Positions 25,268 to 51,789 of a stretch of DNA of 64,000 bases are shown here, piece after piece (positions within the stretch are counted from its first letter, which is position 1; the number at the start of each line of letters is the position of its first letter). The DNA lies in the NCBI GenBank assembly GCA_963575745.1, contig CAUYUJ010000140.1, positions 1-64,000 of the forward strand. Reading direction: 5' to 3'. Source of the stretch: Prorocentrum cordatum. Lineage: Eukaryota. The position numbers were made by a program, and so were the translations under genes. The notes under the pieces were generated by a model. The model was not told where the DNA came from, did no database searches, and saw only the letters and a list, made by a program, of their open reading frames with translations.

Positions 25268-25289
25268 GAAAAAAAAAAAAAAAAAAACG

Positions 25290-25321
<32 letters not shown>

Positions 25322-25381: not shown

Positions 25382-25454
<73 letters not shown>

Positions 25455-25854: not shown

Positions 25855-26040
<186 letters not shown>

Positions 26041-29723: not shown

Positions 29724-32448
29724 ACTCTCGTGAGAACTATGCGGGGTGCACTGCAGGAAAGATGCGGAGGGCGCTGCAAGAACGACACGGAAGAATTGCA
29801 ACGGCTAAACCGATTTGAGCCAGAGAACCGCGAACGGAGTGGCGGTACCAACTGATGAACACAGTTGTTTGTGAAAGGCTTGCAAGCAGTGCAACTGCAT
29901 TCATGTAAGCAATACAATACATGCAACAATCACGCACAATACATGAATTGGCCCCAGGAAATGCAATGCACGCACGCAGTACACTTGCAACTTGTCGCTG
30001 GTGCTTCTGCTAACGGTGCGGCACACTGCGTGGTTAGATTGTGTTGGTGTAAATGCGATAATATACCTTCTATCCAAGACTTAGTTGGCACCCCTGAACG
30101 CACTATCGGTTCGCCATACGTTGCGCAACACGCTTGCCAAGTGGGCCCTCTTCCCTCGACCTCCCCCCCGCCTCCCCCACCCCCCCACCCCCCCCCCCCG
30201 CGCGCAACCAAACCGCGCCCCCGCCCCTTGCTCCCGCGCCCCAAGCGCTCCCCACCGCGCCGCGCTGTTGGAAGCTGGTGGGCGGGCTGCGTTGGGTGGT
30301 GCGCGGGGGGTGGGGGGGGTGGGGGGGGGGGGTGGGGGGGGGAGGGGGAGGGGGGGGGGGGGGGGTTTGGTGGGCATGCGAGTGGCGGCTCGGAAGGTTG
30401 CGCGCGTCGGGTGGCCGCTTGGACGGGTGCGTGGGTGCGCGGGTTGCAGGTGGGTCTCGCATGGGTGGTGGGTGGGAGGTGGGTGGGTGGTGGGCGATGG
30501 GTGGGTGGGTGGTGGGTGGACGGGTGGTGGGCGGGCGGTGCGTGGACGGTGGATGGGCGGCGGGCGGGCGGCGGGCGAGCGGCGTGGTGGCGGCTGGTGG
30601 CCAGCGGGCGGTGGGCGGATGGAAGCGCGCGGGCGCGTGGGTTGTGGGCGGGTTGTGGCAGAGGAAAAGCGGCGGGATGGCGGGGGAGGGTGCAATCAGC
30701 AACATGGCCCGCAGCGCAGAGATTCAAAGGCCATCTGGAGAACTGCGGTCCAATCCCCAACCCCTTGAAGAGGGGCACCCCTGCAACACGAACTGCGTTT
30801 TTAACCGAAGCAAAGCTGGTCCCCCAGGTGGGCGCGGAGGGGGCGCATCAGAGGGGCACCCCTGTAACGCCAGGCTGGCGGGCGCGCGCATGGGCGCGTG
30901 GCGGGCGGGCGGTGCGTGGTGGGCGGTTGGGAGGTAGGTGGTGGGTGGGTTGTGGGTGGACGTGGGTGGGCTTAAAGTCGGCGGTGCGGCTGGTGGTCGG
31001 TGCGTTGGTTGCGGTGGGCGGTTATCGAGTGGCGGTTGGGTGGTGCGTTCGTGACGCCCCTAACTCTGCGCGGGCGCCCCCGCCCCGCGCGGGGGGGGCC
31101 CTCGGGCGCCTCCCGACGAGGCCCCGTGCGAGCCGCCGAGGGCTTGGTAGCCCTTACTTCTCTGTTGAAAACCCTATGGGGGCTCTTTTGCCCTCTGTGG
31201 CCCTTCGGTGGAGTCATGGGGTCATTTCGTGGTCCTGCTTGGGGCCTAGGCGTGCTACTGGGCCCAAAGCACAAGGGGGACCACTTTCGGGAAGTGGTGC
31301 CCCTCGTGTTTGTTTGGCGGCGCCCCAAAGCGCGAAGGAACGAATCGCCGCGCCCGCGCGGGCGCGAGGGGTGGCGCGGGCGCCAGGTGCCAGCCCATTA
31401 GAAAGAAGGTTTTAAGCAACGCCTGACTTGCCTGGGCGCGAACACTAAACGATGACGACAGCGGATGCGGCGAATGGGCGCACGACGGATGCCCGACCCC
31501 TGTATGAAAGCACCTTCCACCCTTGTCAGGGGGCACCCCCATGCCCCTGTTAGGCGGCGCGCTGGCGCCCAATCCCCGCCCCCTGCCAGGAGGCACCCTT
31601 GCAGCGCAAAGTGCATGTTTCATTGGTGCGAAACTAGCTCTCCAGGTGGAGGGGCCCCATTGGGGGGGGGCGCAGCTGTAACGCCAGGGTGGCTGCGCAT
31701 GGTGGGTGCGCGGTGGGCGCGCGGCGGGCGGTGGGCTGGCGGTGGGCGGGCGGTCGCGCGTGGCGGGTGGCGGGTGGGTGGCGGGAACGCTGGCGGGCGG
31801 TGGATGGGCGAGTGGCGCACGGGCAATGCGCGGCGGCGGCGGCGCTGCGCACCCCCCCCCCCGCCCCCCGCCCCCACCATATTCCAGCGCCGCAATGTTC
31901 GAAAACCGCGCGGCGGCACCGCGCGCCGCCGCGGCCGCGCAGCTATAAGGCCCCCGTGCCGCGCATGGCCTGGCAAACTAGAGACACCGTTGCCCGCGAA
32001 ATCCGCACCGCCCCGCAGCCGCCCTGCAACCCCTTGTAGATTGCGAAAATTCAAGCCCACATTCCGCGCCACGCGGCCGATGTCTATTGCGGGGGCACTA
32101 CGGATTGGCGGCCGCGCGCCATGCAAACATCGGCGCGAAACTGCATGGCTCCGCGCGAGGAAACCGCTGAAGGCAAGCGGGCGGGCGCGCGCGTCGGACA
32201 AGGCAGAGCGCCGCTAAGCCGCGATCGACCGTCTCGGAGGGCAGCAGCTGACATCCCAGCCCCGACGGTCGCGGCCAAGGCTGCGCGTCCGCGGCTAGCG
32301 CATGCGGCGTTGATCGCCACGGGACAAGCACAGCCGCCTGCATTCAAGCCAGCAGACGCTTGCCGCGCGCTTCCAGCGGCGCCCGCGAGCCCGCGAAGAG
32401 CGCGGTCGCCTGGACTGATCGCAGAGATATCTTGACCACAAACGAAAA

Positions 32449-32701
32449 GACAACTGACATGCTCGCGCTAGCGGTGAGACAATTTTGGGACAAATGAAAA
32501 GACAAATTTGTCCCGCCGAACCCTGGGGGCTAAAAACCGGAGACAAATGTGAGACAACTTTGTCACAAATTTGTCGTTTTGGGACAAATTTGAGACAAAT
32601 TTGTCACAAATTTGTCCCCATGCGAAATCGATGCGGTTTGGATTGTCTCTTGGTTTGTCTCCTCCCGAAAGTCGGATGCAAAATTTGTCTCCGCGATTGT
32701 C
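32449..32701. repeat. Dense cluster of GACAA/TTGTC motifs including GACAAATTTGTC palindromes
   Basis: About 17 motifs in ~250 bp, forming an AT-rich island. Confidence 0.85.
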
Positions 32702-33479
32702 CTGCTGCGCGCGGCCTCGGCTAGTCCGCGCTGCCAACTCGTCCGCTCGCAGCGATCGCCCCCGATGGCCGCGCGCGCGCAGTGCAGCCTCCCGCGCGCG
32801 CCCTCCATGATCGATGTCTTCGCTGACCCCAGGGCTTGACCGACGCGCCGAAGACGCGCCGCGCTCGCGGACGCGGCGCCGACCCCACCCCCCCCCTCCC
32901 CCGAAGCTGCATTCGCCCGTGCCACCCGCCCTCGCGCGACGGCCGAAGAGGTGCGACCACCGCCTCGACCGTCGCCGACGTCGGCAACGCGCGCGGCCTG
33001 CGCGTCGCGGCGAGGCGCCCCCGCCCAGACCGAGCGCGTCGGAGCACGGGCGAAGAAACACGCCGCGCGGCGCGAAACAAACTAACCCACCGACTCCCGC
33101 CCTGAAAAGCGCGGCGCGCGGAGCGGATCGAGACATTGCGACGATCCAGGGGCGCGCTGGGCGAGCAATCGGCCGCCGTCGCCGCGTGCGCCGCGAGGCA
33201 ACTGCGCCCGTCGCCTTACAAAATGAGGGCGTCTCCTCGGCGGCGCGGCGCCGTCAATGCAGAGCCGCGCCGCGGCCGCAAATTGCGCTTGACTTAACAG
33301 TGGGCGCGCGGGTTGCAGCCGCCGCGCGAAGCCGTCGCGACGCCATTGGAGCGGCGCGGTCGTGGTCCAGGGTGCGCAGGCGCGCGCGCGCTGTGCGCGG
33401 CTTGCCGCCGCGACGCGAGCGGCGCGCGCATGCCCCGCTCGCGAGGAGAGAAGGCGCGGCGGGAAATGCAGAGACGGAT

Positions 33480-33703
33480 CATGGAAGGGGGTGCTGAAGA
33501 TGCAACGTGCAACTGGCATCTCGCGGGTTTCCCACCACCACCTGCGCCTCCCAAACAATTGACACTCGGGGCGGCGACAGCCTCGCCCATACATCAAGCT
33601 GCGTGGGAGCGCGGCGTAGAAGGTGAGCGACAAGTTGACGACGGCCAGCGCCAGGTAGACGTAGCCCGCATTGTTGTAGAAGTACAAGAGCTCGGCGGGT
33701 GGC
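33480..33703 (-). pseudogene. Exon-like hydrophobic fragment (decayed cargo gene)
   Basis: ELLYFYNNAGYVYLALAVVNLSLTFYAALPRSLMYG follows a TTCAG acceptor. Confidence 0.3.
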
Positions 33704-34519
33704 CTGAACGCCCGTCGCCGCGAAGTTCGCGACGGCGGGGGGGGCCGCGGCTTCCCCAGTCAACGGCGCATCGTGCCGCGGCGCGCCTCTAGCCCCAGCT
33801 GCCTGGGGCCCTCAGCTGCGGGGGGGGGGGGCGAGGAAGAAGGTTGCAAGGAAGAGGAGGGTTGTTCAACCGTTGCGAGTGCGGGGAGGGGGGGCGCGCG
33901 CGCGGAGGCGCGACGGGCGGCCCAGCGGGGCGAGCCGCGACATCAGGTGACGCGGGGGGCTGAAGTCCACGATGAGACTCACGGGGGATATGCTGCGGGT
34001 GGCAGCCCGCGAGGTCCATGGAGAGCGCGACCGCCGCCCGCCGCCCGAGGCGACGTGGCGGACATGGAATACGGCAAAACGCACCCCCGACAATCGACTT
34101 CGGCGACTGTGCGGCGACCCGAAGGCACAGCCCAAGCCAACAACTGCCTTTGAAGGACCCGACGGAACGGTCGCCAGTTCCCCCGCGGCGTCGGTGCGCC
34201 CATATCGGCTGGGATCTGCGCCGTCGGCGCAGAAGCCCAAGCCAAATTCGCGGCGTCGCAATTTTTCTGCGCATTTACGTTTCCCCCCCCCCCCCCCCCC
34301 ACACCCTCCTTCCTCATCGGCCCTCCCCTGCGCCACTCCTTCCCCCCCCCCTTGCCCGCGCCTGTCGCGGTCGCACCCCCCTTCCCCCCGCCCTCCTGCG
34401 CGCGCGAACCACGCCTCGCTTCTCGGGCATCAGACAACGCGCGGCGCTCGCAACTTTTGTCGCGCGCCCAAACGTACCCGCCCTACCCCCCCCCTGCGCA
34501 ACCCTCCACCCTCTGGGCA

Positions 34520-35021
34520 CGGATATGCGCAGCTGTGGCCGCTATATACCATCATCCAACCAAACCAGCCACTTGCTGCGCCAAACGCCCGACCAAGCTT
34601 CCCAGCCGCGCCCGCCAACCAAACAACCAACCACGGCTAGCACATCTTCGTGCAGCTTCCAATTGGGCAATTGCTGGGCGGTTGGATAGCGCCTGCCTCT
34701 GCCAGCGCGCCGTGGCTGCGACCGCGCGGCGGGCGCCCTTCAACTGCCATCCGTGCCCTACGTGCCGCGCGGATATGCGCAGCTGTGGCCGCTATATACC
34801 ATCAACCAACCAAACCAGCCACTTGCTGCGCCAAACGCCCGACCAAGCTTCCCAGCCGCGCCCGCCAACCAAACAACCAACCACGGCTAGCACATCTTCG
34901 TGCAGCTTCCAATTGGGCAATTGCTGGGCGGTTGGATAGCGCCTGCCTCTGCCAGCGCGCCGCGGCTGCGACCGCGCGGCGGGCGCCCTTCAACTGCCAT
35001 CCGTGCCCTACGTGCCGCGCG
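34520..35021 (+). repeat. 250-bp tandem duplication
   Basis: 34520-34769 versus 34770-35019; two substitutions seen. Confidence 0.95.
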
Positions 35022-37020
35022 TTTCCCCTGGTGGCCCCAGGCAGCGCGCGGCGCCCGCCGCCTCGGGCACGCGCCCCCGTTCCCAAGGGCACCCCCCCAG
35101 GGCGCGGACCAGCGTTGTTGGAGCATTCGTGCGGCCATTGCCGGCCGAACAAGCCAGCCAACCTGCCCGCAACGCAACGGCGCCAATCTTCCCAACCCGC
35201 CAGCCAGCCCACGAGTGGATCACATCTCCGCCCAGCGCTCGCACGGGGCACCTGCTGGAAGGCAAGGCTCGCACAACTAAGGGCGAGCGCGAACATTAGC
35301 GACGACATCGCGAATATTGTCACGAACCTAGTTCCTATTCGGTCGCGTTCTTTGCTGCGTCATTAAAGGTGCTTCACCAATTCAATACAACGCAGCGCAA
35401 TTTCACGTAACGCATCGCCGCGCAAGTTTAAACTCGCTGTTCTTCTCATCGTTCGATTCGCCTTCTTGCTGGTGCCATGCCGTGCAGTGCGTGCAGCCAG
35501 TGTGATGCAGCGTGCTGCATAGTCAGCGCCCGTCCACTAGCTCTTTAGGTGTCCTACTGGTTGCGCCATCGTTGCGTGAACCGCATTGGTGGCGACAAGT
35601 GTCATTTGGTCGGCCCTCCTCCTCCTCCCGCCCTTATCCTAGCTCCGCGGCCATGCGCCTCGCTCCTGATGTGAGTTTACGCTTTCTGCGCTCAGGGTCG
35701 GCCGTCATCCTCCTCCTCCTGATCCCCCCCTGCTCCTCCTCCTCCCGCTCCTCCTCCTCCTGCTCCTCCTCCAACCCCTCACGTGCACTCCCGCTCTCCG
35801 AAACCGACCCTCTCTTCCCCCCCCCCCCCCCAGCTCAGTCTCTCACCCGTCCAAGTCCCATGTGGCGAAGGACCCAGTGTCCCCAGGGCCTGGCCCGCGG
35901 CGCACCTGTGCAAAACCAGCCTTCGAAGGCCTCGGCGGGCCAGCAATAGCGAACGGGCCAACAGGTGGCCACTGATTGATCCCAGGGGTCGCGTCCAAAG
36001 ACCAACGCGGCAACGATTTCGGCGGCACCTCGATGCCCAAACCGTTTTTCCAGCCACAAAGGGGCACGCGCCACACGGGACCTGAAAGCATAAGACGCTG
36101 AACATGAGAGGGGCCGAGATGAATGCTTGGCGGGGGCGGGGGACGGGACCTGGGGGATGCAAGATTCGGGCAATGTGCAAACCCCAAGGGGGCTCCGAGG
36201 GCAATTTTGGAGCGTTTTACTGGCGGGGGCGGGGCGGCCACCCCGCGCCCTGGGAATTGCCAACCATCGCCCGCAAGGCCGAGGCTTCCCGCGACTGCAA
36301 AATGAGGGCAGTCCGTCACTGCTCTGTCTCGGCGTCTGAGTTCGATCCATTCGAATGCGACATCTGGCCACCAGGACAGGTCGGGGGAATGACTGCGCAG
36401 GTGACAGGATCTGCGGGGTTGAGCGGGAGCAGCGGGCAAAAAAAACACCATCTCGATGGCAGCGATCCGTTGCTCCAGCTGCCTGGGCCGAGCGTCTGCA
36501 TCGCTTGCGGGCGGCAGGCGGGCGACGGGCTTGAAATGGAGCGGAACGCCACGCCGCCCGTCGCGACACATGCCCGAACGCTGGAAAGGAAGAGGCCATA
36601 CTCAGGCTGAAGGAAATCCTGATAGAAGAGGAGGGGGGAAGAGGGGGGCGGAGTGGAGGAGGAGGGAAAGGATGCGGATGACACCACAGGGAAGGTGGAG
36701 GATGGCGGTAGGAAGAGTGGCCGTAAGAGGGCTTGGGTCGTGGATGAAGTGGAAGACAGGCAAGGAGAGAAGGATAAGGGGCGGGCGGAGGAAGAGAAGG
36801 ACCGTCGATCCCAAATGGTGCCTCAGGGGGCAAACGAACATATCACAAACAACACGTCACAACATAAAGTGTGTAGCGCAGTGCATTGGGAGTGGCGGTG
36901 CAAAGGATCGGGTGGCATGCACCTCCTCACTCAACCACGGCGGCAGCTGCAAAAAACTGCTCCTATTGCGAGACCTCGGGCGTTGTCCGCCCCGCTTGGC
37001 GTGCAAACTGTCGGGGTGTG

Positions 37021-37063
<43 letters not shown>

Positions 37064-37971
37064 CTCATGTCGTTCGCGCGGCGGCCCTGGACAACGTTGT
37101 TCGGTATATGGTAGGGCGGGCGGTGACAGGTTCGTTTGTGCCTGGAGCCCAACGGACAGACACTTGCAAGACATGGGCGGGACTGTTGGTAAGGCGTGCA
37201 GGGGTAGGCATTTTGAGCAGCGCAGGGCGGCGCCATGAGATCAGGAGGGGGCCCACGGGAATACGCAGCGCCTCACCCACCTACCATTAACACAGGGGGC
37301 GGGTGCTATCCTGTCCCCAACGTAGCGCCACCGCGGGCGCAGTTGGAGCCGTCCCCCCATCCCCCTGCCAGGTTGCAAACTTCGGTCCGTCCCAAAATTG
37401 CAGGTCGGGGTTCGGTGCCCTGGGCCGCGGATCGCGGGTGGGCGGGGTCGCGGACCAACCCCCTCAAGCGTTGAACATCCCAGAAGAGGCCAGGGGGAGG
37501 GCGATGGAACGAGAGTGGCGATGACGAAGAGGGTATCGGAGAGGGAAGGGCGGGGGAGGCAGAGAGGCCGAGGATGCACATGCGATTGCGTGAGGAGGGG
37601 GGACACGGCGGGCACAATCGGAAGGCGTACGATAATGCAGACGCGGAAGAGCACGATGCAGACAATTGGAATTGCCGACGGTGAGGGTTAGAGGGGCAGG
37701 ATGGGGAGGGCGGCAGGTGAAACATGATATACCACGGCCTTTCCAAGCTTTTGTTTGCGCGGGGTGGGGTGTCGGGCGGGCAGACCCCATCATTTCAGGC
37801 GCCGCGCGGCCCCGCCAACAAGACGTGCCACTTACTTCGTCGCCCCCCTTGCACCTTCCTTCCTCCCCGCTGCTCCTCGCTCCTCCAGGTAATCCTCCTC
37901 TTCCTGTTCCTAGTCGCCACTCAACGCTACATTGCGTTGCCTGTCACAGCAAGTTGTCTGAAACACAATGC

Positions 37972-40900
37972 TTACACGAAATCCTCGTGCTCCGAATCCT
38001 CGCCAGGGAGCTTCTCCCGCTCCTGGGCGAAAAGCACGTGCGCACCAGGAAGGGTCTTCAACCGCTCCCTGGCGGCTTTCCGAGCAGCCCATGAACAATG
38101 GCACAAGCTCTTGTGCTCCCACGCAGACGCAAAATTGTTGTACTGCTGAAGCCAACACACAAGATACCCAAGAGGCCTGCCAGTTCCCTTTGATGTCCGC
38201 TTGGCGTGACGGCCAACGCGGTTCTTCCTACAACAATGGCTGGTGCGAAGGTCAATGGCCTTCCCCTTCCTAGGCTTACGCTCCTTCCCATCACGATGCA
38301 TCTCGTCATGGCAATACGCGTAGAACCCAGAAGTGTCGTAATGAGTGATCGTGCCAAGGCCAGGTATATCGAATGTGACAACACCATGCTCCCGAAGATC
38401 AGGCTCGTCAGCAACGGCGGGCGGAGGCGCTGGAAGATGAGGTGGCGGTTCATCTCCGCCGACTGCATCGCCGCCCCCGTCTCCCCCTCCTGGACCACCA
38501 TGGCTCTCGTCGCCGTCGCCTGGGCCACCGCTCTCGGACTGCGGCGGCGTCGGCCCAGCGAGGGAGGACAGCTCGTCGGCCTTGACATCGGCATCCCCAT
38601 GGCCAGGGTCCTCGATATCCATGGTGCTGCCCTCGCCGTCACTCTCCGCGTCGGCACCCGCCTGCGACCGCCACGAAGCCAGCATCTGCTTCGCGGTCAG
38701 CTTCTTGGCCTTCTGAGGGTTTCCACCACTCATGGGCAACCCCGCGAAACCACGAAGCAACGTCAAGATGCCGAGCGTGAATCGCGCCGACGAGCTCGGG
38801 GGAGTAGCAGACGCGGAAGAAGCACACGTCCCACGCCCAGTCGACGGGGAACTCACGCACGGCCTTCCAGTCGGTGAAGTTCCTCAGGGTAGAGGTGAGC
38901 CGCACGCGGTCCAAGGCGATCCGCCCAGGGTTGTCCTCCATGCGCCGCGAGACGTCATCGACCTCCTGTCCATCAGCGAGCCGCATCTCGTGGATGTAGA
39001 GCGTGAACGGCTTCAGCTTCACGTCGGCTAGAAAGAACCAGCGGGCAGCAGGCTGCAGCCCGTCTCCGCCCGCGCCCGCGTCGGCGCGCGGAGGGACTGG
39101 GACGGCCAACATGACGATCTCGCCGTTCATCAACGCGTCCTGCCCGTCGCTCTTGGGGAACTGGGAAGACACGATGCGGTGGAGCTTGCCCCGCATGGAT
39201 GCGTGCGCCTTCCCCTGCGGCCCGCACATGCACGCGTTGGCCGCGTGGCATAGTCGGGACGCAAGCGGCGGCGGGTTGGACGCCTTGTCGGCGACCTCAG
39301 GGACAGGTGCGTGCTGTATGGTGTTATGAACGGCAGCCCATATATCATCAAGATGCTGGCGAATGGCACGGGCATGGTGATGCCGACCTCCATGAGATAA
39401 CATTGACGTCGCAAGTCTCGTGAAGCTCTTGTTCTTGTACTCCACGTGCTGGAACCCATCCACGGAAGTCGGCGCGATCGACGCGTCCGGAGCGTTGGCT
39501 TTGGCGCCGTCGCCAATGCTGCCCATGACACGCTCCGCCGCGTCCCTCGAGACGTTCAGGTCGTACGCTTTCAGGCGGTCCAGCTCGTCTTTCTGCAAGG
39601 CCCTCTGCGTCAGCGCATCCTGCCTCCGATACCGACTCGCCGACACAAGGCTGCTCCAATCGGGCGCCGCGAAAACGCCGACTGCGAGGACGCCGTCGGC
39701 AGCGCCAACGCCGTGCCCAGCAAGCGGCTCGCGGACGGCAGCTCGCTGGCGCCGACGCCCCAACGGGTGCGCCGAGCGGTGCGCAGCAGCCAAGTTCGCA
39801 GCGGCAGCCCGCTCCGTCAGCTCACGGAGCGCCTCGGGTGACAAGTTCGCGTACTGCGTGCTCAGCCATGGGAAAGACGGCATCTCCTCGGGCGTCTTAT
39901 CGGCCTTCTGGTCGCTGCAGAACACGTTCCACTCTGACAGCTTGCGCTTCTTCTGAGCGCAAGGCCCGTCGCCCCCAGGACCTGCGTCGTCGTCATCTTC
40001 GCCAACTGCCGCGTCAGACGGCTTCTCGTTGAAAGCCTTCTGCCATATTCCAGCCGCCTGCTTCTGCATTCCCTTGGAGATCCATTCAGCGTTCATCCCA
40101 TGAAAATCAATGGGCCGACCCTGCGGCGACCAGCCCAACACGAAACGGCGAAGCACGGAATGGTTTCTCTCGATCGCAACCTGGTCGCGGCGGGCTTTCA
40201 ATGCAATCGACCTCAACTCCATGGCAGCGTCAACGGTGCCCAGGCCACCATGGTGGCTGGTAAAATGCCTTGAGAAAGAATCCATGCGCTTGGGGCACGT
40301 CATATCACCTGCGACCTCTGCCACTAGGGCGTCGTTGGAGAGAGTGCCAAACATCTTATATGGATAATTACTGAGCTCGTCAACAAGGTCATGAAAGCGG
40401 GAAGCGCTGCGCGCAAGCATCTGGAACGCAATAGTCTGATACACGTGGGTGCGGTCTCTGACTGGAAGGCCATCGAAACCACAGTCGTCCATGATGAGCG
40501 CGTGGCAAGCATCGATGGCACTACGCTCCTCCTTAGCAAGAAACGCAGCTTCCAATTGGGACGACCGACGCACGTGGGGATGAGGACCGCATGCCGAAGC
40601 TCGGTCCAACTCCATCCGTCTCTGCTTTCTCTCCCAATCCACCAAGCCCAATAGAGCGCAGGCGAGTGAGGCAAGCTACTCACACGTCCCTCCCCCACAC
40701 CATCGGCGAGGGGTCGCCGCCGCCCGCTCCCGCGCCTCCCACGCGCAGCCTGGGCGGCAGGGGCGGCCGTCGCGGATGGCCCAAGATGGCTCCCACGCGT
40801 AGCGCCGAAGACCTAGAGGACCCAAGAATGCCCACTCTACCCGAACACAGCCCAACGCGGCACCGCCCGCGCCCCAGGGATCTCCAGTGCAGATCCTCGG

Positions 40901-43900
40901 CGGCATCGCGCAAGCACGACTTGCGTGCAAAGGGCGCGCCGCGCAAGCCAACCCAATCAGAACGCACGAAGAGGATGCAAGCGAGTCCTTACATCCCCGC
41001 GTCGCTCGGCCCCCCAAGACGTCAATATGCCCCCAGGGTGGCTCGACGCAATCCCGAGACGCGCCCGCGCGAGCCCCAGAGACGCGCTAAGAACGCCAAT
41101 GAATGACCCAAGAGCCCCCGCCCCCAGAGACGCCGAAGACCCGATGCTGGGGTTCCATCCAGGCCGCCCCACGCCGAATGAAAACGTTGGTTTGGCCGAT
41201 CAACGGCAACGTGCCCCCGAGAGGACACCGACGGCCGCTGCGGCGGTGCCGAGAGAACCCCAGGACGCGCGCGCGAGGGCACCCCTATGGACGCCCACAA
41301 GGCCAAGATCAGCACCCACGACGCACCGAATGGCAGCTAACAACAAGCAAAGCACACGCGCGCCCCAAGACACACGCGAACCACCCGCCGACAACACAAC
41401 CAAACGTAGGCAGGCGCCAATAAACCGCACGCACAACAGCCCTCGCCGTCGCGCCGCGGGCTGAAACCCGACAAGGCCAACGCAACGGCGGGGCGCGCCA
41501 AAACCAATGCGACCACACCGCGGTCGCGCTCAGTTGACAGTCAGCTTGCGCGTTGGCCAGAGCCAGAACGATCGTGCTTGACCCTGTGTTTTTTTTGTAC
41601 AGGCTGTGGTTGTGTCGCGCGCGTGGTCGCTCTGCTGCGCTGTTGACGAACAAAAACTCGCCCCACCTCGTTCCCCCCCACCCCCCCCACCCACCTCCGC
41701 AAGCATCTACGCCCGCCCCCTTACCCTCCTCACCTCCACCTACTCCTCCCCATCCGTTCCTCCTCGACCGCGCTCCCTGGGGCACGGCGACCCCGAGCGT
41801 TTTGTTTCAGCGCGCGTCGCCCGTTGTCCTCTGATTAGGAAAACCCGTTCGGCCGCCGCCGCTGGGAGTTTGGGCTGGCGGGGAAGCGCGAAGCGTCACG
41901 ACTTTACACTAGTTAACCCGATAAAACTGCACATGAAATCTGCGTGTATGAAAGCAACTCGGCACATGATGACGCAATCCTGCAGCGCGAGGCCAGTGTC
42001 GCACCATTCCAAGACAGATTGACGATATTTACTCGGTTCTGTTCGTCTGGCCTCCCAGACGCCTTGCCCGTCGGCCTCCCCTGAGGGAGGGCGCGGCAAC
42101 TAAGCGTTCGCGTCGGCATCAAGCACGCAGCACGCCCCCCTGGCCGCAAGGGCAACGCGCGCAACAAGGCGCGCGCCGTGAGCGCCTTCACGGCGTCCGT
42201 CCACTTGCGGCCAGGCGGGCATGGGGCATGCGTGATGCGCGGAGCAAGCGCGCAGTGAGCCAACCCCCATCGCACCTGCAAAAGCAACGCCGGCGCCGCC
42301 TGCTGGAGCGCCATCGCCGACGTCATCGCCGCCATGGGGCGCCGCGCCAGGGGCTCCGCCGCCGCCCGCGCCGACGTCGTCAGCGATGGCGGGCGCAGGG
42401 CCACCCCCGTCAGCGAGGGCGGGAATTGCAGCGGGTGGCCCCGCAGCGGGGACATGCCCAGCAGGCCCGCCGTCGTCTTTGAGCCACTTACAGAAGCGTC
42501 GGTAGATGGGGTCAAAGAGGCCATGCACGACCGCTAGGACACCGATCCACGAGGGCCCCTTCTCCCAGCAGGTCCAGCCTCTCCCAGGATAACTGTAAAG
42601 CTCGCGATTGACTACGGCATCAACGAACCTGAACACAAAACGAGATTGGACCACACAACAGGCGACGGCAAATTGCCAACGAACCCGCACCTGGCCAAGC
42701 CGAGCACCCCCTGAGATTGGCATGGGCGCCCATCCACCCCCCCCATACCCGCTCCCAGGCCGCCAGAGTCCCTCCCCGACCGCCCGCCGCCCGAAACCAG
42801 TCGAACCCCGCATGCTTAAGCAAGAGGGGTGTCATACCAATCTCGGGGTCTGTCTCGGCCAGACGCGGTGCGGCGTCGTTGACATGTTGGCGTCGCCTAC
42901 CTCGTCGGGCGTCCCTGCTGGGACATGCGTCTCCACGACGTCCTCATCGTCCCAATCGCCGCCGCACATGGCCAGCAACAGGGCTCGCAATGACAAGTTC
43001 TCCTTTGTTCTCGGGAGCACCATGTCAAGCTTCCTCTCGTTAACACGTCGCATCTCGGCGGACGGCATGCCACGTATGATTTTCATGCGTTCCAGGGTGA
43101 CATATCGGGCCGCAGCTCGAAACACCTTTCTGTGATTCCCAAATCTCAACGACAACACTGCATGCACCATATAACTGTGAGCAAGCCTCAGAAGAACTGC
43201 CGAGCGTTCCCGCACAGTCGCGCCCTTGTGGGCAAAACACCGGAGGCGCAACGACGGCGCGCCGAGCACATGCTCAAGCGCGCGCTCTGCGCGCGCAATG
43301 GCAGCATCACCGTCAGTGCAGCTCACGCGGTATACCCTCTTGCACAGAGCAGCAATAGCGTCCCACCCCACAAATTGCATGACGAATCGGCAAGCGATAA
43401 AATAACACTCGGCCGTGCACCTCCCAACATTTAAAATCGGCACGGGCACGTCGAACGTAAACACAGTGTACGTGCCATTTAAATGAACCAGCAACGACAT
43501 CGAACATTCCACCTGCAACAGCTTAGTCGGGGCCTTATCTCTAGCAGCGCCTACGCGCCAGAACGGATCATCAGCAGCCAGCGCGCTGGCAAGATGCTCG
43601 AAACCTGGAGGCAGAATGGAGTCACTAGCATTCTCTGGAACAATCACCGACATTGGGGTCTCATCATACCGAGTGGTGAAGATCGCGCACACGACGCGCC
43701 CCAACTGTCTCATCACATCTACAATGACGGTTGTGATCAAAAGCTTCACCATGAAAATGTGCAACACTAGCGAGCAAATCGAGAACAAACACTTCATGCC
43801 CCGCAGGGTTCGGCGGTCAACGCCGTGCTCCTCTCCCTGGGTCTTGAAACTCCCCTTGGTGCAAACCTCTGTGGACGAGACGAGGCCTACGATACGAGCT

Positions 43901-45000
43901 GATTCAGCATCATCAAGGGGCAATTGTTGGTTGGCGGCGGCCATGCACACGATTGCGCTCACGGCCTGGCCAACCGACTCCACGTGCTGGGGGGGACCTC
44001 GGGCCGCGCCAGCGGCAGCGTCGTGACCTCAGGAGGGCGCGGGATCGAGGACCCCCCCGCCTGCCTAGTCCGCCAACCCGCTAAGAGGTGCGACCGACCC
44101 ACAAGCATGCAGCACCGCCCCAAGGCGCCCAAGATGGCCCCGCGACCCCGCACAAAAAGTCCCCAATAATGCTTCCGATGGGCCCAGTCGCATCCCTTGG
44201 CCAATAGCTCCACGACAGGTCCCCCAAGAGACCTCACGACACCGCGCACTGCCCGTTCTGGCGCCCACGCGCCCGCTTTGGCCTAACTAACTACCGCGCG
44301 GATCCCATGTGCAATGTCGCGGTCGGCGCCGATATTTCTATTGGCGCGTGCTCCCACGCCTCATCGAATATATCGTTTCTGGATTGGTCGGCGGAGACGC
44401 GCACAGCGCCAGAACCTAAACGGCCACGGGGGCAAGTGCTGAAGGCAAGAGCGGCGCATCCAAGAGGTCGCCCTAGGTGGCTCCAAGTCGGCCGACGATG
44501 GCCAAACTATATTCCGAGGCGACGCCCAAACAAGACGACGGCCAATAGTGCCCAAGACGGCTCCCAAACGACCCAAAACTGAGTTGCCCCAAAATTGCAC
44601 CCGCCCCTCAATTCTAGGTTGCCCTAAGACCTGCCAGCAGACCGCGGACGAGGGCCGCGGCCCCCTTCCGCCACGCGCCTGCCGAGCGGAACTGGCGGTC
44701 CAGCCCCTCGGGCAAGGCCGCCGCCAGCAGCGCCGCCTCCGCGGTGCCGTCGCCGACGGCCGCGGCGGCCTCGACTGCCTGCTCCGCGCCTCCGTCGGCT
44801 GCGCCAGCGGCGGCCGCCGCCGCGCCGCCGCCTGCGCGCCACGCCGCGAGGCCGCCGGCGCCGGCCTCCTCGACGGCCGCGTCCGCGGCCGCGCCGCCGC
44901 CTGCGCGCCACGCCGCGAGACAGCCCGCGGCGTCGGCCTCCTCGACGGCCGCGTCCGCCGCATCACCCCCGCTGTCAGCGGCGAGCCACGCAGCGAGCAT
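37972..45000 (-). pseudogene. hAT-like DDE transposase of the giant element, with HMG-box-like region and Cys/His-rich C-terminal domain; multi-exon, probably inactivated
   Basis: ATG at 45000. Motifs: YDETP (Asp 43663-43665), CTDGD (Asp 43312-43314), RCFAH (43228-43239), PGRGWT (~42575), AIERNHS (Glu 40169-40171), KRKLSEWNVF..YANLSPE (~39810-39955). A phase-compatible GT-AG intron lies at 42275-42081. Lesions: insertion 40641-41905 and frameshifts near 38700 and 43990. Confidence 0.78.
40641..41905 (+). mobile_element. Family B-related Helitron2-like element inserted in a transposase exon
   Basis: Starts ACCAAGCCC and ends GGGCTGGCGGGGAAG-CGCGAAGCG-TCACGACTTT. Removal gives in-frame ..FIGLTSVDWERKQRR.. 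Confidence 0.65.
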
Positions 45001-45035
45001 GATGAAGCAAGGTGGATAGCCACAGCCACAACACA

Positions 45036-45054
45036 TTTGAGCCAAAAAATACGG
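45036..45054 (-). other. Relic dinoflagellate spliced leader upstream of the transposase ATG
   Basis: CCGTATTTTTTGGCTCAAA versus DinoSL CCGTAGCCATTTTGGCTCAAG. Confidence 0.6.
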
Positions 45055-45295
45055 AGGAGGAAGAGGACGGGGGGAAACCAATAATGATCAGGAGGGGGGA
45101 CATTGTTGATACAAGAGAATTGCTCTTGGGAGCGCATCGGCTACAATGCGAACGCAATTCAGATGGGCTGTGATCGTGAACCAGATAAAATTGAAATATA
45201 AACCATAGACAAGGTACATCATCACACACGAGTGAGGGACAATGCGATCAGACAAAAAAAGACAAATCTTACATTCTTACAAACCAAGGCGCAAA

Positions 45296-45314
45296 GGGGC
45301 CCGTGACATCTGAA
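45296..45314 (-). repeat. Right TIR of the giant element (followed by TSD 45315-45322)
   Basis: GGGGCCCGTGACATCTGAA then TCCTACAG. Confidence 0.9.
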
Positions 45315-46859
45315 TCCTACAGTCCTCCCCCTCCGCTGCTGATCGCCCCGCGCCCCCTACCCCCCCGCCACCTCTCCTCGCCCCGCGCCCATTTCGACGC
45401 ACCCCTCGAGCGGATCGTCGGGGCATTGGCGCGGCATTGGGGCGGCGGGGCGGCGGACAGCCGAAGCGAATACTACCCTAGGACCCCAAGCGGCCAAGAC
45501 CCCAAGACCCTAAGATGCCAAGATGATGCACTACGCCCGCGTGCCCGGGGACCGAGGCGGATTTGAACGGCGTGAATCCGTCTCCGCGCACGCGGCGGCG
45601 GGTGCCCAGTTCTGTGACCCAGCGACGCCCAGGTGCAAGGCAAGGATGCAGGGGTGCCCGAACGCCCCACCGCCTATGTAGCACGTCGGAATCGCGCGGC
45701 AGCGCCACTGGATTCGGTTTAGGTTTTTCTCCGCCAGGCGCCCTCGCTATCCGGGCTATCCGCGCACGCCGCAAGGTTGATACTCGGGGCGTGCGCCAGC
45801 CCAACGTGTATCACGGCGGCTGTGTAAGCGATGCTGCATGCTGCATGCTGCTGCATGCGCGGCCGGATGGGCCATCGATGGAAAATATCTTGGCGGCTGT
45901 CGTAAGGCGTTGCTGGACGTGCCGATTGTCAATGCGTGGCCGGATGGGACATCGATGTAACGATGTAAAAGATCTGCAGCCTGCTCGTGCGAACCACGCG
46001 ACCGGCCTCTGGTCCCAGTAGCGCGCCCACACGTGGCTCTGCGGGTACTTGCGAGCGTCCTCCGCGAACTGCAGGACCCTGAACCAGCGCCCATCGAGCC
46101 ATGGGCCCCTGCGACCGCGGCGCCACCAACCAGACCACCAGGGGGGCACGTGCATACGACGACGCCCGCGACGCCGGCGACGACGACCAGAGTGCTAGGG
46201 CCATCCTATGGGCCTGGGGGCCCCTTGCCCCGCTAGGGGCTCCAGGGTTTTCCGCGCCAGTTCCCCTTGCGTCTCCTCCGAGCGGGCCCCAACCCAAGAT
46301 GGCTCCAAGAGGAACCCGTACCCCCGACTCCATCTCTGCGCCCCCTTGGGCCAATTGGGCCTTGGGCCTTGGGGGCCCTCCCACGAGCCCCCCCCCAGCT
46401 CGCCGCCCTGGTCGTCGCCGGCATCGCATCTGTATGCACGTCGTCGTCGTCCTCGTCGTCCTCGCCATCGAATGCCGTGCCCCCCTGGCGGCGGCGGTGC
46501 CACTTCGACCCCCTCCAACCTCCGCGGCGGCGTCGCCGGCCTCCTCGCCGCAACGGCTGGCGGCGCCGCTGCGGCTGCGGCCGCGGCTTTCGGGCTCCGA
46601 CTGCGGCTGCGGGTGACCTCCGACAATTGATCCGGGCTGTTCGGGGGTTGCCAAGTGTCCCTGGCCCCAGGGTGTCTCCGGCTTGCCGCGCCGTTTTGGA
46701 CCCCCGGGGGCCCTCTGGGGCTCGCAAGGGCAAGGGATGCTCTGGAGGCCGCGGGGGCCCCCCTGGAAATCCTGGGGACACCTTGGGCCAGGGGCACCTT
46801 GGCAACCCCCGGGGGGCTGTTCATGTCGACGGGCGACCCTGGAGCGGCGCTGTCGACCG

Positions 46860-47241
46860 CGGGCCGGGGCGGAGCGGCCAGCGCCAGCAGCGCCCGCGCC
46901 TGCTCCGGGGGGACCGAGCATTTGACGAGGTCAAGCTCGATGAGGTAGCAGATGTGGGAGGAGGAAAACTGTGCAGATCCAGCTCTCTTGGCCATCCATC
47001 CTCCTCCCCCCTCCTTCCTCGATTTTCTCGAGGATGAGCGGGGAGGAGGAGGAGGAGGGCCAAGAGAGCTGGATCTGTACAGTTTCCCTCCTCCCAAGAT
47101 GTCCTCGTTCTTCGCGACGCCGAGCTCGGCGAGGACAGCCGCGTAGCCAACCAAGCCCTCCACCCGCATCTGCTCTAGCAGAGCTGGCGCCATGCCGAGG
47201 TCGGTCTCCAGCATCGCCGAACCGGGCGCGGGGAACTCCAT
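46860..47241 (-). CDS. N-terminal SAM-like domain exon interrupted in frame by a MITE
   Basis: Without the MITE it reads LEQMRVEGLVGYAAVLAELGVAKNEDICYLIELDLVKCSVPPEQARALLALA, which fits a sterile-alpha-motif pattern. Tandem SL relics lie upstream. Confidence 0.55.
46955..47096. mobile_element. 142-bp MITE
   Basis: 39-bp TIRs (46955-46993 and 47058-47096, 2 mismatches) and 5-bp TSD AGATG (46950-46954 and 47097-47101). Confidence 0.88.
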
Positions 47242-47308
47242 CCTCAGGGCCAAGCTCGGCCCAACGGCCAAACCAAAATGGCTTGGGCCTTGAATGGCTC
47301 GGGCCAGG
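47242..47308 (-). other. Tandem relic spliced leaders
   Basis: ..GAG CCATTCAAGGCCCAAG CCATTTTGGTTTGG CCGTTGGGCCGAG.. shortly before the ATG at 47241. Confidence 0.55.
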
Positions 47309-49196
47309 GGCGCAGCGGAGGTTTCGCCACGCGGCTGCACGGGCTCGGGAAACCGCCCGGCCCCTGAAGACCGGGAGAGGACCGCGGGTCGGCGTGCCAA
47401 CCAGCTACCCTCAGGCCCAACGGGGCCCAGGAAGGCAAACCCAGCTTTCCAAGTCGAGACCAGCCGTGGCGACGCTGACGCAACCAGCCGAACACGCCAA
47501 ACCTCACAGTCCCAGCGCCCGCACAGACAGTGCCTGGTGTGGCGCGCGTGCGCGCGCGTGTACAAGGGCGCAAGGGTGCCGCGTGTACAAGGGCGCAAGG
47601 GTGCCGAACTCTTGAGGCATTGCCCAGTGTGGTGTGCGTGAGTGCGCGTGCAAGGACGCAAGGGTGCTGCGCGCGCGTGTGAGTGTGTGTGTGTGTGCGC
47701 GCGTTGTGTATGCATGCTGCATTGCTTGATGGCGCTGGTCGTTCGCCTGCTTTCTCAGCGCCACTTCAAATCACGCTGGCAATTAATGCGTTCACACTCG
47801 CGCGCGCGTGCGCCCCTGGGAGCTCTCTTAGACTCCTCGTCGTCGTCCGTCGTCGTTCGTCGTCGTCGTTCAACCTTGAACGCCCGCGGCGGGGCAGTCA
47901 GCCCTGGGACCTGGGCTCGGTTTTCCATCGAAGCGTTCCTCGTCGTCGTGCGTCGTCGTCGTCGTCGTCGTCGCCGTCGGGGGCCACTGTCGTCGTTCGT
48001 CGTCGTTCGTCGTATCGCGATAGATAGAGCGACGCAGATCGATAGAGCGACGGAGCGATCCAGAGGTAGAGCGATAGAGGGATAGAGAGGACGGGAGGCA
48101 GAGGATGAATAAATGCCCAGACGAAGAGGAGGAATAGGGAGGATATCCAGGATAAGAATAGGGAGGAGGAGAAGGGGGAGGGGGGAGAAACGGACGAGGA
48201 GGAGGATCGGGCGCGGCCAAACCGACCCCTAGGAAACCATCCCCTTCCGTGACATCCCCCTCGCCCTCCAGGCGCCCCTCCGGCCGCATGCCTACGTCGC
48301 GGAGCGGCGCGAGGGGGGCGCCACGGAAGGGGATGGTTTCCTAGGGGTCGGTTTGGCCGCCCCTGGGGAGGAGGGGAAGGGATGGGGCGTTTCCGAAACA
48401 AGGCCACAAGGGGAAGTGGCAGTCGACGCCCGTCCGGGAGAACAGTCGTCGGCGGGAATCAGAGGCCCGGCTACATCTTGCGAAGGCCCCGAAGGCGCTT
48501 GCGCTCCCGCAGCGCGTCCTCGTAGAACCACGGCCTCTTGTCGCCGATCGGCGGCGGGCGCGGGGGGGGCATATGAGAAAGGGCGGGCCTTCCGAGGCTT
48601 CTGAGAAGTCCGCCGGCCTTCTGAGAAGCTGAGAAGTTTCCCCTGTCTTCGAAACCGACCAAGGAAACCTCTCAGAAGCCCCCCGGGCTTCTGAGAAGTC
48701 CCGCGGCCTTCTGAGACAGCCTTCTCCTTCTCACCCCCCCCCCTCGCTCGCCGCCGAGCCGAGCCGGGCCTCCCCCCCCTCCTGCTCCACCCTGTCCTTC
48801 TCGTGCTCGTAAGCATCGTCGCAGAACATCGCCCAGGCCTCGCTCCACGCCCTCGACGCCTCGTCCTGCTTCTTCTTCGCCTCCGCCTTCGCCGCCGGCG
48901 TCGCCCTCTCGCACTCCCCCCTCCTCCGCTGCGCTTCGGCCGGCGAGCGCGGCGGGGCGATATGGAGACTCATGGCCGCCAACGACCAACGACAAACGTG
49001 GCCATGCACGACGTCCCGACCAGTTTATTCGCGCTGCGTCCAGCCCTGGCGACGAGGAGGGGCCCTCGGGGGCCAGAAACTCTGGAACCTCGATCCTCGA
49101 GGTTCGAGGTTCGAAGATCGACGTGAATGGCGACGGCGACGACGACCGCGACGACGACGACGACGTCAACGACGAAGACGACGACGACGACGACGA

Positions 49197-49259
49197 CGGC
49201 AGTGCGCGCTGACTTTTGGATCGGCCCAGAGCCGATCCAAAAGTCAGCACGCACTGCCG
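49197..49259. repeat. 29-bp-stem hairpin
   Basis: CGGCAGTGCGCGCTGACTTTTGGATCGGC-ccaga-GCCGATCCAAAAGTCAGCACGCACTGCCG, 1 mismatch. Confidence 0.85.
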
Positions 49260-50204
49260 ATCGTGCATGGCCACGCGTGTCGTTCCTCGAATCGGCGCGG
49301 GCGCGGGCGAGGGCGCCGACGTGTACTGGCACCCCGTCTGCTCGAGGCAGCTCAGGGAGACTGCCCAGTGCTGAGCCAAGACCGGCCATGGCCACGGCGA
49401 TGCTGTCCGACCCCTCCGCCCCCCTTCCGACGTGACGCCAGACCCTTGGACGCTGAGGGTGCAAGACCCTTGAACCTTGGGCGGTCGCGGGTGGGTCGCC
49501 GGTGGGTCGCGGGTGGACGCAGGGTAAGGGTGCGTAACTCATCCCCCCTCCACTGCACCTCCTCCACCTCCTCGTCCTCCTTCCCGGGGATCTCCCCCGG
49601 AATCCTCCCGCGCGCTCCTGATCATCACCTGCGTGCGTGCGCGAGCGTGCTCGTGCTTGCGCCCGCGCGGTGGCGGACGAGGAGGTACTAGCAAGGATGC
49701 ATGCAATGGCGCGAGGATGCAAAGCCCCTCGGGCTCAGGATGCAAGACCCGTGGACGCCGAGGATGCGAGACCCTTGGACGGGCGACGCTATGGATGCAA
49801 GACCCGGGGACGCTCGTCGTCGTCCGTCGTCTGGGGTGGACGGCCCGGGCGCCGGCGACCGTGCCCGAGACACGGTCGCCCCCCCCGATCCACCAGACCC
49901 CTCCAGCCAGCCGCGCCCTGAGGGCACGGCCAGCGATGGGGGTCTGGCGGGAGCGGGGGAGCGCGCGGGCCTTCCACCCCCTCGGACAAGGATGGGGGAT
50001 GAAGAGGAGGACCGGCGGTGGACAGACCTCCCTTTAACAAACCTCTCTTTAGCGAAAACGACCTGGGACCGAACCCGACGGGCCTGGACCCGCAAAAATG
50101 ACGGCCGCGACGCCCTCTCGAGAACCGAAAACGGCCGATTCGCTAATCGACGCGTCAGGGTAGGAGGTCTATCAACCCCCGAGAGGAGGCGAGGCACCGA
50201 GCTT

Positions 50205-50470
50205 CCAGGAACGAATCGCTCACCATGAACGTTTTGCAAGTGCGGCTTCATCAAATCAAATCGCTCACCATGAACGCTCACTGACTCACTGCAAGTGCGG
50301 CTTCATCAGATCGAATCGCTCACCATGAACGCGCACTGATCAGCGGCTTCATCAGAACGAATCGCTCACCATGAACGTTTTGCAAGTGCGGCTTCATCAG
50401 ATCGAATCGCCATCGCTCACCATGAACGCTGCGAGCGGGGATCGCCAGGCGGCTTCATCAAATCGAACCG
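50205..50470 (+). repeat. Degenerate ~45-bp tandem repeat (GAATCGCTCACCATGAACG..GCGGCTTCATCA)
   Basis: About 5 copies visible. Confidence 0.8.
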
Positions 50471-50744
50471 CTCAGTCCGACGCCGCGCGGATGTCCCGGA
50501 TGCGAGTAACCTGGGGAGGGCGAGGGGGAGGAGTAGGAGATGGGGGGAGGGGATGGGGATGGGAGACGAGAAGAAGGGAGGAGGAGGGAGGAGAGGAGGA
50601 GGACGAGGAGGAGGAGGAGGAGGGAGAGAAGGACGGGGAGAAGGACGGGGAGAAGGACGGGGAGCTGTCCAGGGGAAGAGAGGGAGAAGAGGAGGAGAAG
50701 GAGGAGGAGGAAGGAAACACGGAGAGCAGGAGGAAAGAGGGCAC

Positions 50745-51184
50745 CTCGATGGGGATGCCCGCGCGCCCGAAGCGCTCCACCACGTCGAGCAGCTGCTGCT
50801 CCGACGACAAGAACGCCGTGATGTTGTCCGACGATCGGGAGGGAAGAAGATAGAGGAAGGGCGTCATCATCATGCCGAGTGCCATCGGCCCGATGGCATG
50901 ATGACGCCCTTCTTCTATCTTCTTCCCTCCCGAGATCGCGGCGGGTCCGTCCAGATCGTCACGTAGGCGATCGCGTCCTCCGGCGGCCCCTGGAACTCCG
51001 TGAAGATGTCGTCGGGCTGGGCGTCGGGCGCGGCGTCGGGCTGGGCGTCGGCCTGGGCGTCAGGCTGGGCGTCGGGCTGGGCGTCGGGCTGGGCGCCGGC
51101 GCCGGCGCGGGCCTTGGCCTTCGCCTTCGCCTCCGCCTTCGCCTTCGCCTTCGCCGCCGCGCGGCGCTCCGCCTGCGTCGGCAT
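50745..51184 (-). pseudogene. First exon of an unknown gene broken by a MITE
   Basis: MPTQAERRAAAKAK..YVTIWTDPPRS joins SDNITAFLSSEQQLLDVVERF in frame once 101 bp are removed. A weak SL relic lies at 51224-51238. Confidence 0.5.
50835..50933. mobile_element. 99-bp foldback MITE
   Basis: TCGGGAGGGAAGAAGATAGAGGAAGGGCGTCATCAT and its near-perfect reverse complement, flanked by GA (alternatively a degenerate 4-bp duplication). Confidence 0.8.
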
Positions 51185-51789
51185 CGCGCCCGCGCTGCGA
51201 CGCCCTGGCGCGGCGCCACCGCGCCAGAGCCGAAACGGTTGCGATGGGGGGATCGGGGGGAGGAGGCGGAGGAGCAGACGGGGGATCGGGCGGGGCGACT
51301 AAGGATGCAATACCCTTGGGGGGCCACGACGGCCCAGGGATGCAGCGCCGTCCGGTGCCCGCGAGCGGCGGCAATAGTAAAACCCCAGAACGGGCGGCAA
51401 GGATGCAATGCCCATGGGCCCTCGGGCGCGAAGGATTCAAGACCCGTGGGTGCCTCGGGCCCGCGCCCCCCCACAGGGGCCCGCGATCGTCGATGCGATC
51501 GTCGTCGTTCGTCGTCTGTTGCCCGTCCATCGTCGGCCCCGTTCGTCGACGCACTGCGAGTCAAGTTGCATTGCTGCATTGACAGGGATGGGGGATGGGC
51601 CGCGCAGGCAATGGATGCAAGTGTGCGGCAGGAGTCTGGAGGAGGGCGGGGCACGGGCATGGGGCACGGGCACGGCGCATCAGAGCGGGCCAACCCCGCC
51701 AGAATCGTCGTCGCATCATCGTCGTCGTCGTCGTATTCGCGTTCCCCCTTTTACCCACCCACCCCTCACCCCAAAATAATGCATGCCTC

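Follow-up and report, generated by a model that had tools for sequence, protein, structure and literature searches.

We report here a locus on the minus strand of a 64,000-nucleotide stretch of Prorocentrum cordatum DNA (positions 1 to 64,000 of contig CAUYUJ010000140.1, assembly GCA_963575745.1; hereafter the window) that probably encodes a large Hermes-like Asp-Asp-Glu (DDE) transposase, ~1500 amino acids long in intact relatives, with an HMG box of its own. Judged from a modelled homologue, its core is likely to be RNase H-like, with strand 5 parted from the Glu helix by a large insertion domain made up of helices only, as in the Hermes/hAT layout, and there is good reason to think that the family to which it belongs occurs widely among marine protists and is missing from Pfam. 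A preliminary description of the segment 37972-45000, made from the sequence alone, had listed there a series of motifs read as a hAT-like transposase fused to an HMG-box-like domain and a Cys/His-rich tail.

A multi-exon gene and its relatives

Every motif of that series was present in the frame translations, in the order described and on the minus strand, within 44028-37972 of the window, where four stop-to-stop frames carry the set (44028-42832, 42831-42100, 40675-38639 and 38883-37972). Using the 398-amino-acid first frame (block 1) as query against 1.84 billion representative proteins, we obtained 467 relatives at E<=1e-3, 122 at <=1e-10 and 8 at <=1e-30 (best E 7.7e-54), these being clusters at 50% identity, and many of them are 1000-1700 amino acids long. 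Open reading frame (ORF) C shares 62% identity, across 97% of its length, with an 'unnamed protein product, partial [Prorocentrum cordatum]' (E 7.3e-268). When relatives of at least 900 amino acids from the block 1 search were compared back onto the window by tblastn, 48 gave high-scoring segment pairs, and those of all 48 were colinear within 44001-37978 on the minus strand, in five blocks (about 44001-42898, 42693-42466, 42072-41902, 40642-38690 and 38397-37978), with 40642-38690 covered by 32 of the 48 and the tail block 38397-37978 by 15. This colinearity confirms that the motifs did not come together by chance but belong to a genuine multi-exon gene. The high G+C content (61-65% around the locus) does yield many long spurious frames, with 269 of at least 130 amino acids in the window, as would be expected if there were no gene here and the frames had arisen by chance; but the E-values of block 1 and ORF C, the architecture common to the 48 long relatives and the confident AlphaFold models leave that alternative a vanishingly small probability, and by the family E-values and the colinear relatives it is already refuted.

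Homology to the relatives supports four coding blocks, with approximate limits as in Table 1, and a tail at 38719-37975. Splice sites were placed from GT..AG dinucleotides and compatible reading phase in the DNA; where block 3 meets block 4 the P. cordatum protein has ..LGLVSVKWER.., which makes that junction uncertain. The run contigs matching the locus contain no joints and so provide neither splice nor excision evidence. The joining of exons put forward in the preliminary description held for the four blocks, but not for the last junction, which is a one-base frame change and not an intron.

Conservation was assessed by counting columns in an alignment of 105 family members (alignment 1) and in a second of 43 sequences led by ORF C of the window (alignment 2). 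The residues D, D, [C/D]xxH, W and E, which had been read as a hAT-type order, proved near-invariant across the family, and in that order (Table 1; the family Trp was set beside the Hermes Trp by its order in the protein, not residue by residue). The Glu of the RYDETP motif is present in 100 of 103 members, and near the catalytic Glu H172 is kept in 39/42 sequences and R176, seven residues after the Glu, in 42/42.

Searches of other collections with parts of the protein gave little. No match to block 1 was found by tblastn in phage records and nothing real among PDB sequences, and its scores in a protein atlas were at most 0.83; a search for longer homologues of ORF C found none; and scans for related loci gave 32 pattern matches in viral contigs and 121 in metagenome contigs, of which 0 were confirmed in either. 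The four pieces of the locus taken from the window had no Pfam match at E<=1 or <=10, and at E<=1 Pfam gave no match at all in 24 of 32 homologues and single chance-level matches (E 0.037-0.32) in 7; in homologue P0001 residues 771-836 matched YABBY (6.9e-5) and HMG_box_2 (0.078) below threshold. With at least 467 clusters at 50% identity and no Pfam model, a sizeable group of genes, mobile or domesticated, would thus stand unannotated in dinoflagellate-type genomes. As a separate observation, homologues P0010 and P0003 carry acidic W-G/G-W repeats (D-A-D-W-G, D-A-G-W-G) in an otherwise disordered N-terminal stretch of 150 residues, and these motifs recall GW-type protein-binding hooks.

Predicted catalytic core, HMG box and downstream modules

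For the core, homologue P0003 (1089 amino acids) was folded by AlphaFold with the 105-row alignment, giving a model with a mean predicted local distance difference test (pLDDT) score of 73.6, a predicted template modelling score of 0.71 and 560 residues at >=90. In the model three strands, the first of which bears the first Asp, are followed by a helix, a strand ending at the second Asp (strand E397-404 directly before D405), a helix, a strand and the CxxH motif, and only helices lie between CxxH and the Glu helix (871-888). The best Foldseek row was Hermes (E 1.3e-2, probability 0.99), then ISCth4, RAG1, the P element and Mos1. When the Foldseek list was aligned with VIA-align, six Hermes entries came out on top (Z 11.5-14.0), with 379 residues of Hermes 8edg_A aligned at Z 14.0 and a root mean square deviation (rmsd) of 4.3 (model 233-914, Hermes 138-609). 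Hermes was likewise rank 1 of 48,161 chains in a search independent of Foldseek, so that the comparison by AlphaFold and Foldseek proposed in the preliminary description came out in favour of Hermes. It stood 3.7 Z units above every other chain, aligning over both core and insertion domain, with an identity of only 8-9%. After Hermes came retroviral integrase catalytic cores (Z up to 10.3, 127-146 residues aligned, spanning model 278-924), whose alignments point to a complete RNase H-like fold with its last helix beyond the insertion domain. Lower values were obtained with ISCth4 (Z 8.7-9.2, 268-282 residues, rmsd 5.8-6.3) and with the P element (Z 8.4-9.0, rmsd 8.0-8.2); for the P element/THAP9 group, marked by a THAP finger and a GTP-binding insertion domain, Pfam gave no match in any of 32 homologues. 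By these comparisons no solved chain comes closer than Hermes (hAT) to the modelled catalytic fold of the homologue.

The HMG box could be assessed on the window's own sequence, by folding ORF C (678 amino acids) with AlphaFold and 43 rows (pLDDT 81.1). The top 21 rows of its re-scored Foldseek list were all HMG boxes, led by Sox11 (Z 6.6, 64 residues) and HMGB1 box A (6.4) and followed by HMGB3, Sox17, TFAM, UBF and TOX, with the next rows at Z 4.2 or less; HMG boxes likewise took ranks 1-10 in the full search of 48,161 chains. These matches have Z 5.0-6.6 over 58-71 aligned residues, values below 8, so the call of an HMG fold rests on specificity and coverage. The corresponding region of P0003 matched HMGB1 at Z 7.9 and SOX2 at Z 7.2. 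Consistent with the fold, a profile of 30 family segments found TFAM (E 3.7e-5), HMGB1 (2.2e-4) and NHP6A (2.5e-4), its first 14 rows being all HMG proteins (HMG range to 8.9e-4) and DnaJ J-domains appearing from E 1e-3. The Pfam gathering score for an HMG box was reached neither by the window, which gave no match, nor by P0001, whose weak YABBY and HMG_box_2 matches (E-values above) fall where its HMG box lies. Model and profile together support a true HMG box at 39955-39806, in agreement with the box suspected at 39810-39955. The segment resembles TFAM, HMGB1, NHP6A and SOX proteins in its three-helix fold and its N-terminal basic K/R-x-x-S/G-A-W/Y-x-x-F strand, but differs from them in sitting inside a transposase chain and in falling below the Pfam gathering score.

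Downstream of the HMG box the ORF C model has a long helix (residues 340-394), and beyond it lie the Cys cluster, a beta-rich domain, a linker and the tail (Table 1). For the beta-rich domain and the long helix no fold match was obtained above Z 2.5 or among the best 50 rows, where this region was barely tested. The tail, described beforehand as Cys/His-rich, is supported by its sequence alignment as a conserved, family-specific domain: Y18, C27, C54, G71, R72, P73, W80, R104, R108, E124, R125 and E134 are invariant in 17 aligned sequences, in at least 90% of which H32 and H93 are also kept, and the conserved Cys and His residues suggest a C-H-C-H metal site. It had no match in Pfam, and against the PDB the single sequence gave chance streptavidin rows only and the profile a best E of 1.3; weak leads in the protein atlas (0.81-0.83) were diatom hypothetical proteins. 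Separately, the sequence LF-x-x-ERPR-x-x-GE-x-x-EPE at the very end of the protein (37975-38040, minus strand, and the C-termini of homologues), with E and R invariant in 17/17, resembles a short linear docking motif.

A mechanism can be proposed, in which catalysis, DNA bending and mobility of the element are all inferred. As in Hermes, the acidic triad (two Asp and one Glu) would coordinate the metal ions that serve to cleave and transfer DNA strands. In transposition of the Hermes type CxxH and the Trp have a role in the hairpin step, and their counterparts here may serve the same step. The built-in HMG box would aid synapsis by bending DNA at the ends of the element, or by capturing distorted DNA there, as the host protein HMGB1 does for RAG and Sleeping Beauty; the Cys-rich modules probably give sequence-specific DNA binding in place of the hAT BED finger, and the conserved C-terminal domain probably binds metal. 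A transposase chain that includes an HMG box would be a natural experiment on the need of DDE recombinases for a host HMG protein, and it could inspire self-sufficient tools for transposition.

Affinities of the probable transposase and state of this copy

Among known systems the likeness is greatest to Hermes and hAT transposases, in the RNase H-like DDE core, interrupted by a large insertion domain that is entirely helical, in the residue order D, D, [C/D]xxH, W, E and in the best structural match among solved chains. The family differs from them in having no Pfam match to the hAT dimerisation domain or the BED finger, in the placing of its first Asp in RYDETP, in ~700 extra residues after the Glu helix (HMG box, Cys cluster, beta-rich domain and tail) and in that no 8-bp duplication or inverted ends above decoy were found around the locus. 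Dimer_Tnp_hAT, which we take to be the Pfam name of the C-terminal hAT dimerisation domain, was absent in 32/32 homologues (E<=1) and in the window pieces (E<=1 to 10), and zf-BED matched none of the 32. The hAT identity suggested at the outset is thus borne out for core fold and residue order, and is left without a match to the dimerisation or BED domain and without element ends. With RAG1/RAG2 and Sleeping Beauty the protein shares the use of a DDE recombinase together with a DNA-bending HMG box for synapsis, but their HMG protein is a separate host factor, HMGB1 being described in the available text of PMC10368747 as helping synapsis in RAG (at the 23RSS, a recombination signal sequence) and in Sleeping Beauty, whereas here box and transposase form one chain. 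RAG1 itself matched P0003 weakly (Foldseek E 0.27-0.43) and was absent among the best 50 rows of the full search. Like the IS256/Mutator transposase ISCth4, the core has an inserted helical domain, but the ISCth4 score is clearly below that of Hermes and no MULE or Transposase_mut model of Pfam matched. KDZ/Zisupton transposases are large eukaryotic DDE transposases with Cys-rich modules, and in this the family is like them, but neither the window pieces nor any of the 32 homologues gave a match to the Pfam KDZ model; to our knowledge, no KDZ structure has been solved.

Several results weigh against a Hermes-like transposase at this locus. Neither the 27 homologues searched at E<=0.01 nor the 32 searched at E<=1 matched a transposase family of Pfam, a full-length family profile found nothing real among PDB sequences (best E 0.25, low complexity), and Foldseek with the P0003 model gave no match at E<=1e-3. 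Mostly helical models can reach a Z of ~13, or even ~13-14, by common arrangement, so that the Z of 14 stands at most modestly above that level, and the core model is that of a homologue with 31-34% identity in block 1 and not of the window's own spliced protein. Between 44029 and 45000 there was no homology to the N-termini of the relatives, which leaves the 5' end and any 5' exon(s) of the gene undefined and removes the basis for the upper bound of 45000 set in the preliminary description. A scan of one copy only for 12-nucleotide inverted ends (<=2 mismatches) with an 8-bp duplication, 20000-37972 against 44030-64000, returned 3 candidates as compared with 25 in the decoy; with no element ends of any kind found, the idea that a built-in bending module helps to pair ends tens of kilobases apart is unsupported.

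Some of these results would also fit a DDE transposase outside hAT (Kolobok, CACTA/Mirage/Chapaev, KDZ/Zisupton or a eukaryotic MULE), to which Hermes is merely the nearest structure available. The lack of Pfam matches to the hAT dimerisation domain and BED finger speaks for this reading, as do the first Asp in RYDETP, not in the D-x-W-T/S context that surrounds it in hAT, the alignment of ISCth4 (IS256, a Mutator relative) and the P element as well (268-366 residues, Z 8.4-9.2), and a weak lead in the protein atlas to a cluster with the Pfam Mutator domain PF20700 in 23% of its members (score 0.79, rank 15). But Hermes scores well above all of these, with core and insertion aligned at an rmsd of 4.3, compared with 8 for the P element; no MULE, KDZ, P or CACTA model of Pfam matched at E<=1 either; and the contexts I-E-R-x-H-S of the Glu and R-C-F-A-H of the Cys resemble hAT blocks, which have a consensus around these two residues. 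On balance we regard a non-hAT origin as rather unlikely and a Hermes-like transposase as the better account. Going further, the family may tentatively be viewed as an unnamed, superfamily-level, hAT-related lineage of eukaryotic cut-and-paste elements in dinoflagellates and other marine protists, in which the built-in HMG box and two private Cys/His modules replace the BED finger and a host architectural protein; although this falls short of an even chance, if true it would make this the first DDE transposase known with its own DNA-bending cofactor. The lack of a Pfam model for the family makes the new transposase clade suggested in the preliminary description plausible. No title or abstract in the literature searched describes a fusion of transposase and HMG box, or the family, Repbase and subscription journals being outside the search; the family may already be named there. 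Nor did any title or abstract found support the earlier statement that Zisupton transposases carry HMG boxes (the original Zisupton paper lay outside the search), and the available text of a dinoflagellate genomics review (PMC11453091) has 0 occurrences of 'transposase' and 'hAT'.

As to the state of the copy in the window, ORF C and the tail frame are separated by a single base. The two frames overlap, and no intron of plausible length bridges them. Two runs, X1 (depth 31.3) and X3 (6.2), have contigs that cover position 38720, and in these the base is missing (the contigs of X2 and X4 do not reach it; the runs, which match small parts of the window, are labelled marine metagenome), and the P. 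cordatum relative P0151 reads across both frames. An intron at this junction was considered and rejected, as no workable intron fits and X1 and X3 lack the base. Without base 38720 the translation ..HEWWNPQKAKKLTAKQMLASWR.. agrees with ..HEWWSPSKAKKLSAGQMLASWR.. of the P. cordatum protein, and from this agreement and the contigs we infer a one-base insertion in the window copy, which may be either a mutation or a base-calling error and would stop the protein at 38639, without its tail. The window differs from run X1 at ~0.5-0.7% of sites; of 40 differences, among at least 50, 29 lie in the exon model, 20 of them non-synonymous and 9 synonymous (a ratio of non-synonymous to synonymous polymorphism, pN/pS, of ~0.69), where ~22 and ~7 are the neutral expectation. 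Four of 15 X1 contigs are only 90-95% alike, some matching the Cys-cluster or HMG region alone and then diverging, which suggests that these are paralogues.

These data bear on whether the gene could be a domesticated, immobile derivative of a transposase, kept by dinoflagellates and their relatives for a cellular DNA transaction. Such a gene would need neither the terminal inverted repeats nor the target duplication that the window scan did not find; the gene seen here has several introns; run X1 carries the locus colinearly and extends beyond the stretch at either end; catalytic residues and five modules persist across relatives that share only 20-40% identity; and full-length relatives (~1600 amino acids) lie on contigs of 5.9-7.8 kb that look like transcripts. 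But transposase genes such as Ac and P have introns too, and the near-neutral X1 differences, the frame break and the putative paralogues all count against domestication, as does the number of clusters, 467 at 50% identity fitting a proliferating family better than one host gene. Taken together, frame break, near-neutral differences, paralogues and family size favour a decaying transposon copy over a host gene family, so that we consider domestication improbable. Rather than an active gene, the copy in the window is most likely a decaying cut-and-paste transposon copy, or one that contains an error of base calling.

Coordinates and surroundings of the locus

Table 1. Features of the transposase locus, in window coordinates (gene order, 5' to 3'; x/y, number of aligned family members with the residue)
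Feature	Position	Strand	Details
Coding block 1	42900..44003	-	Helical N-terminal region and strands 1-5 of RNase H-like core; tblastn blocks 44001-42898; ORF 44028..42832
Block 1 splice sites (putative)	acceptor cccccccag|CAC near 44003; donor GTAGGC ~42899 or GTATGA 42836	-	Inferred from DNA
YDETP	43668-43654	-	
First catalytic Asp (RYDETP)	43663..43665	-	D in 103/103
CTDGDAA	43320-43300	-	
Second catalytic Asp (first D of CTDGDAA)	43312..43314	-	D in 104/105, E in 1; family motif TDxDxA
LRCFAH	43245-43228	-	
[C/D]xxH motif (CFAH), after strand 5	43228..43239	-	C in 103/105, D in other 2; H in 105/105
Coding block 2	42491..42692	-	Part of all-helical insertion domain, holds PGRGWT; homologue blocks 42693-42466
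Block 2 splice sites (putative)	acceptor ggccag|GTG ~42692; donor CT|GTAAGT ~42490	-	Inferred from DNA
PGRGWT	42588-42571	-	
Conserved Trp (PGRGWT)	42576-42574	-	W in 89/96, F in 6, L in 1; family motif FPRxRW
Block 2/3 junction	phase-1 donor ~42490; acceptor ccctcag|GG ~42078	-	Joining yields Trp codon
Coding block 3	41881..42077	-	Insertion domain; homologue blocks 42072-41902
Block 3/4 junction (putative)	donor GTAAAG ~41880; acceptor 40675	-	Inferred; exact junction uncertain
Coding block 4 (ORF C, 678 amino acids)	38720..40675	-	Rest of insertion domain, Glu helix, HMG box, long helix, Cys cluster, beta-rich domain
AIERNHSVL	40177-40151	-	
Catalytic Glu (AIERNHSVLRR)	40169..40171	-	E in 58/60 (alignment 1) and 43/43 (alignment 2); family motif IExxHAxxRR
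HMG box (ORF C residues 239-302)	39770..39961	-	Three helices, pLDDT 85-97
KKRKLSEWNVFCSDQK	39952-39905	-	
SFPW..TERA	39877-39806	-	
CHAANACMC (C-x5-C-x-C cluster)	39224..39250	-	C476 in 32/33, C482 in 32/32, C484 in 30/32
Beta-rich domain (ORF C residues 520-651)	38723..39118	-	Strands with pLDDT above 90
One-base frame change in AAA run	38720..38722	-	Separates ORF C from tail frame
Linker, ORF D frame	38392..38719	-	Basic then acidic, low-complexity, from translation; comparable linker in homologues
C-terminal tail domain	37972..38391	-	Candidate C-H-C-H metal ligands, GRPLGxLxAWL, terminal ERPRxxGExxEPE
YCHDEMH	38316-38296	-	
HCCR	38238-38227	-	
GRPLGYLVCWL	38181-38149	-	
Stop codon of gene	37974-37972	-	

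The G+C content of the window varies between 54 and 70% in 2-kb bins. The window is rich in low-complexity repeats, which dominated the repeat scan, and Rfam gave no match over its whole length. Two low-complexity segments, one intronic (41560-41803) and one upstream of the gene (44732-44975), are matched in run X2 by hundreds of contigs 90-95% alike (summed depth 3044 and 250, respectively); these pile-ups are a dispersed simple repeat outside the coding part of the gene. Two long homopolymer tracts, one of G and one of C, lie at 37019-37063, ~1 kb downstream of the stop codon, and at 21394-21440. Tandem arrays of an 11-12-nucleotide GGTGGGTCGCG-type unit occur ~4.8 kb apart at 15411-15850 and 20237-20576, an array with a 20-nucleotide period at 17782-18241, and a tandem repeat with a period of ~146 nucleotides at 13885-14330 and 16032-17349. 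A 732-amino-acid frame at 5861-8056 (minus strand) has a protein-like composition and matched neither Pfam nor PDB sequences. Among the 21 window frames tested, the only Pfam match was in a 391-amino-acid frame at 54874-56046 (minus strand), which has RCC1 repeats (RCC1_2, E 5.1e-27; RCC1-like domain, 2e-28).

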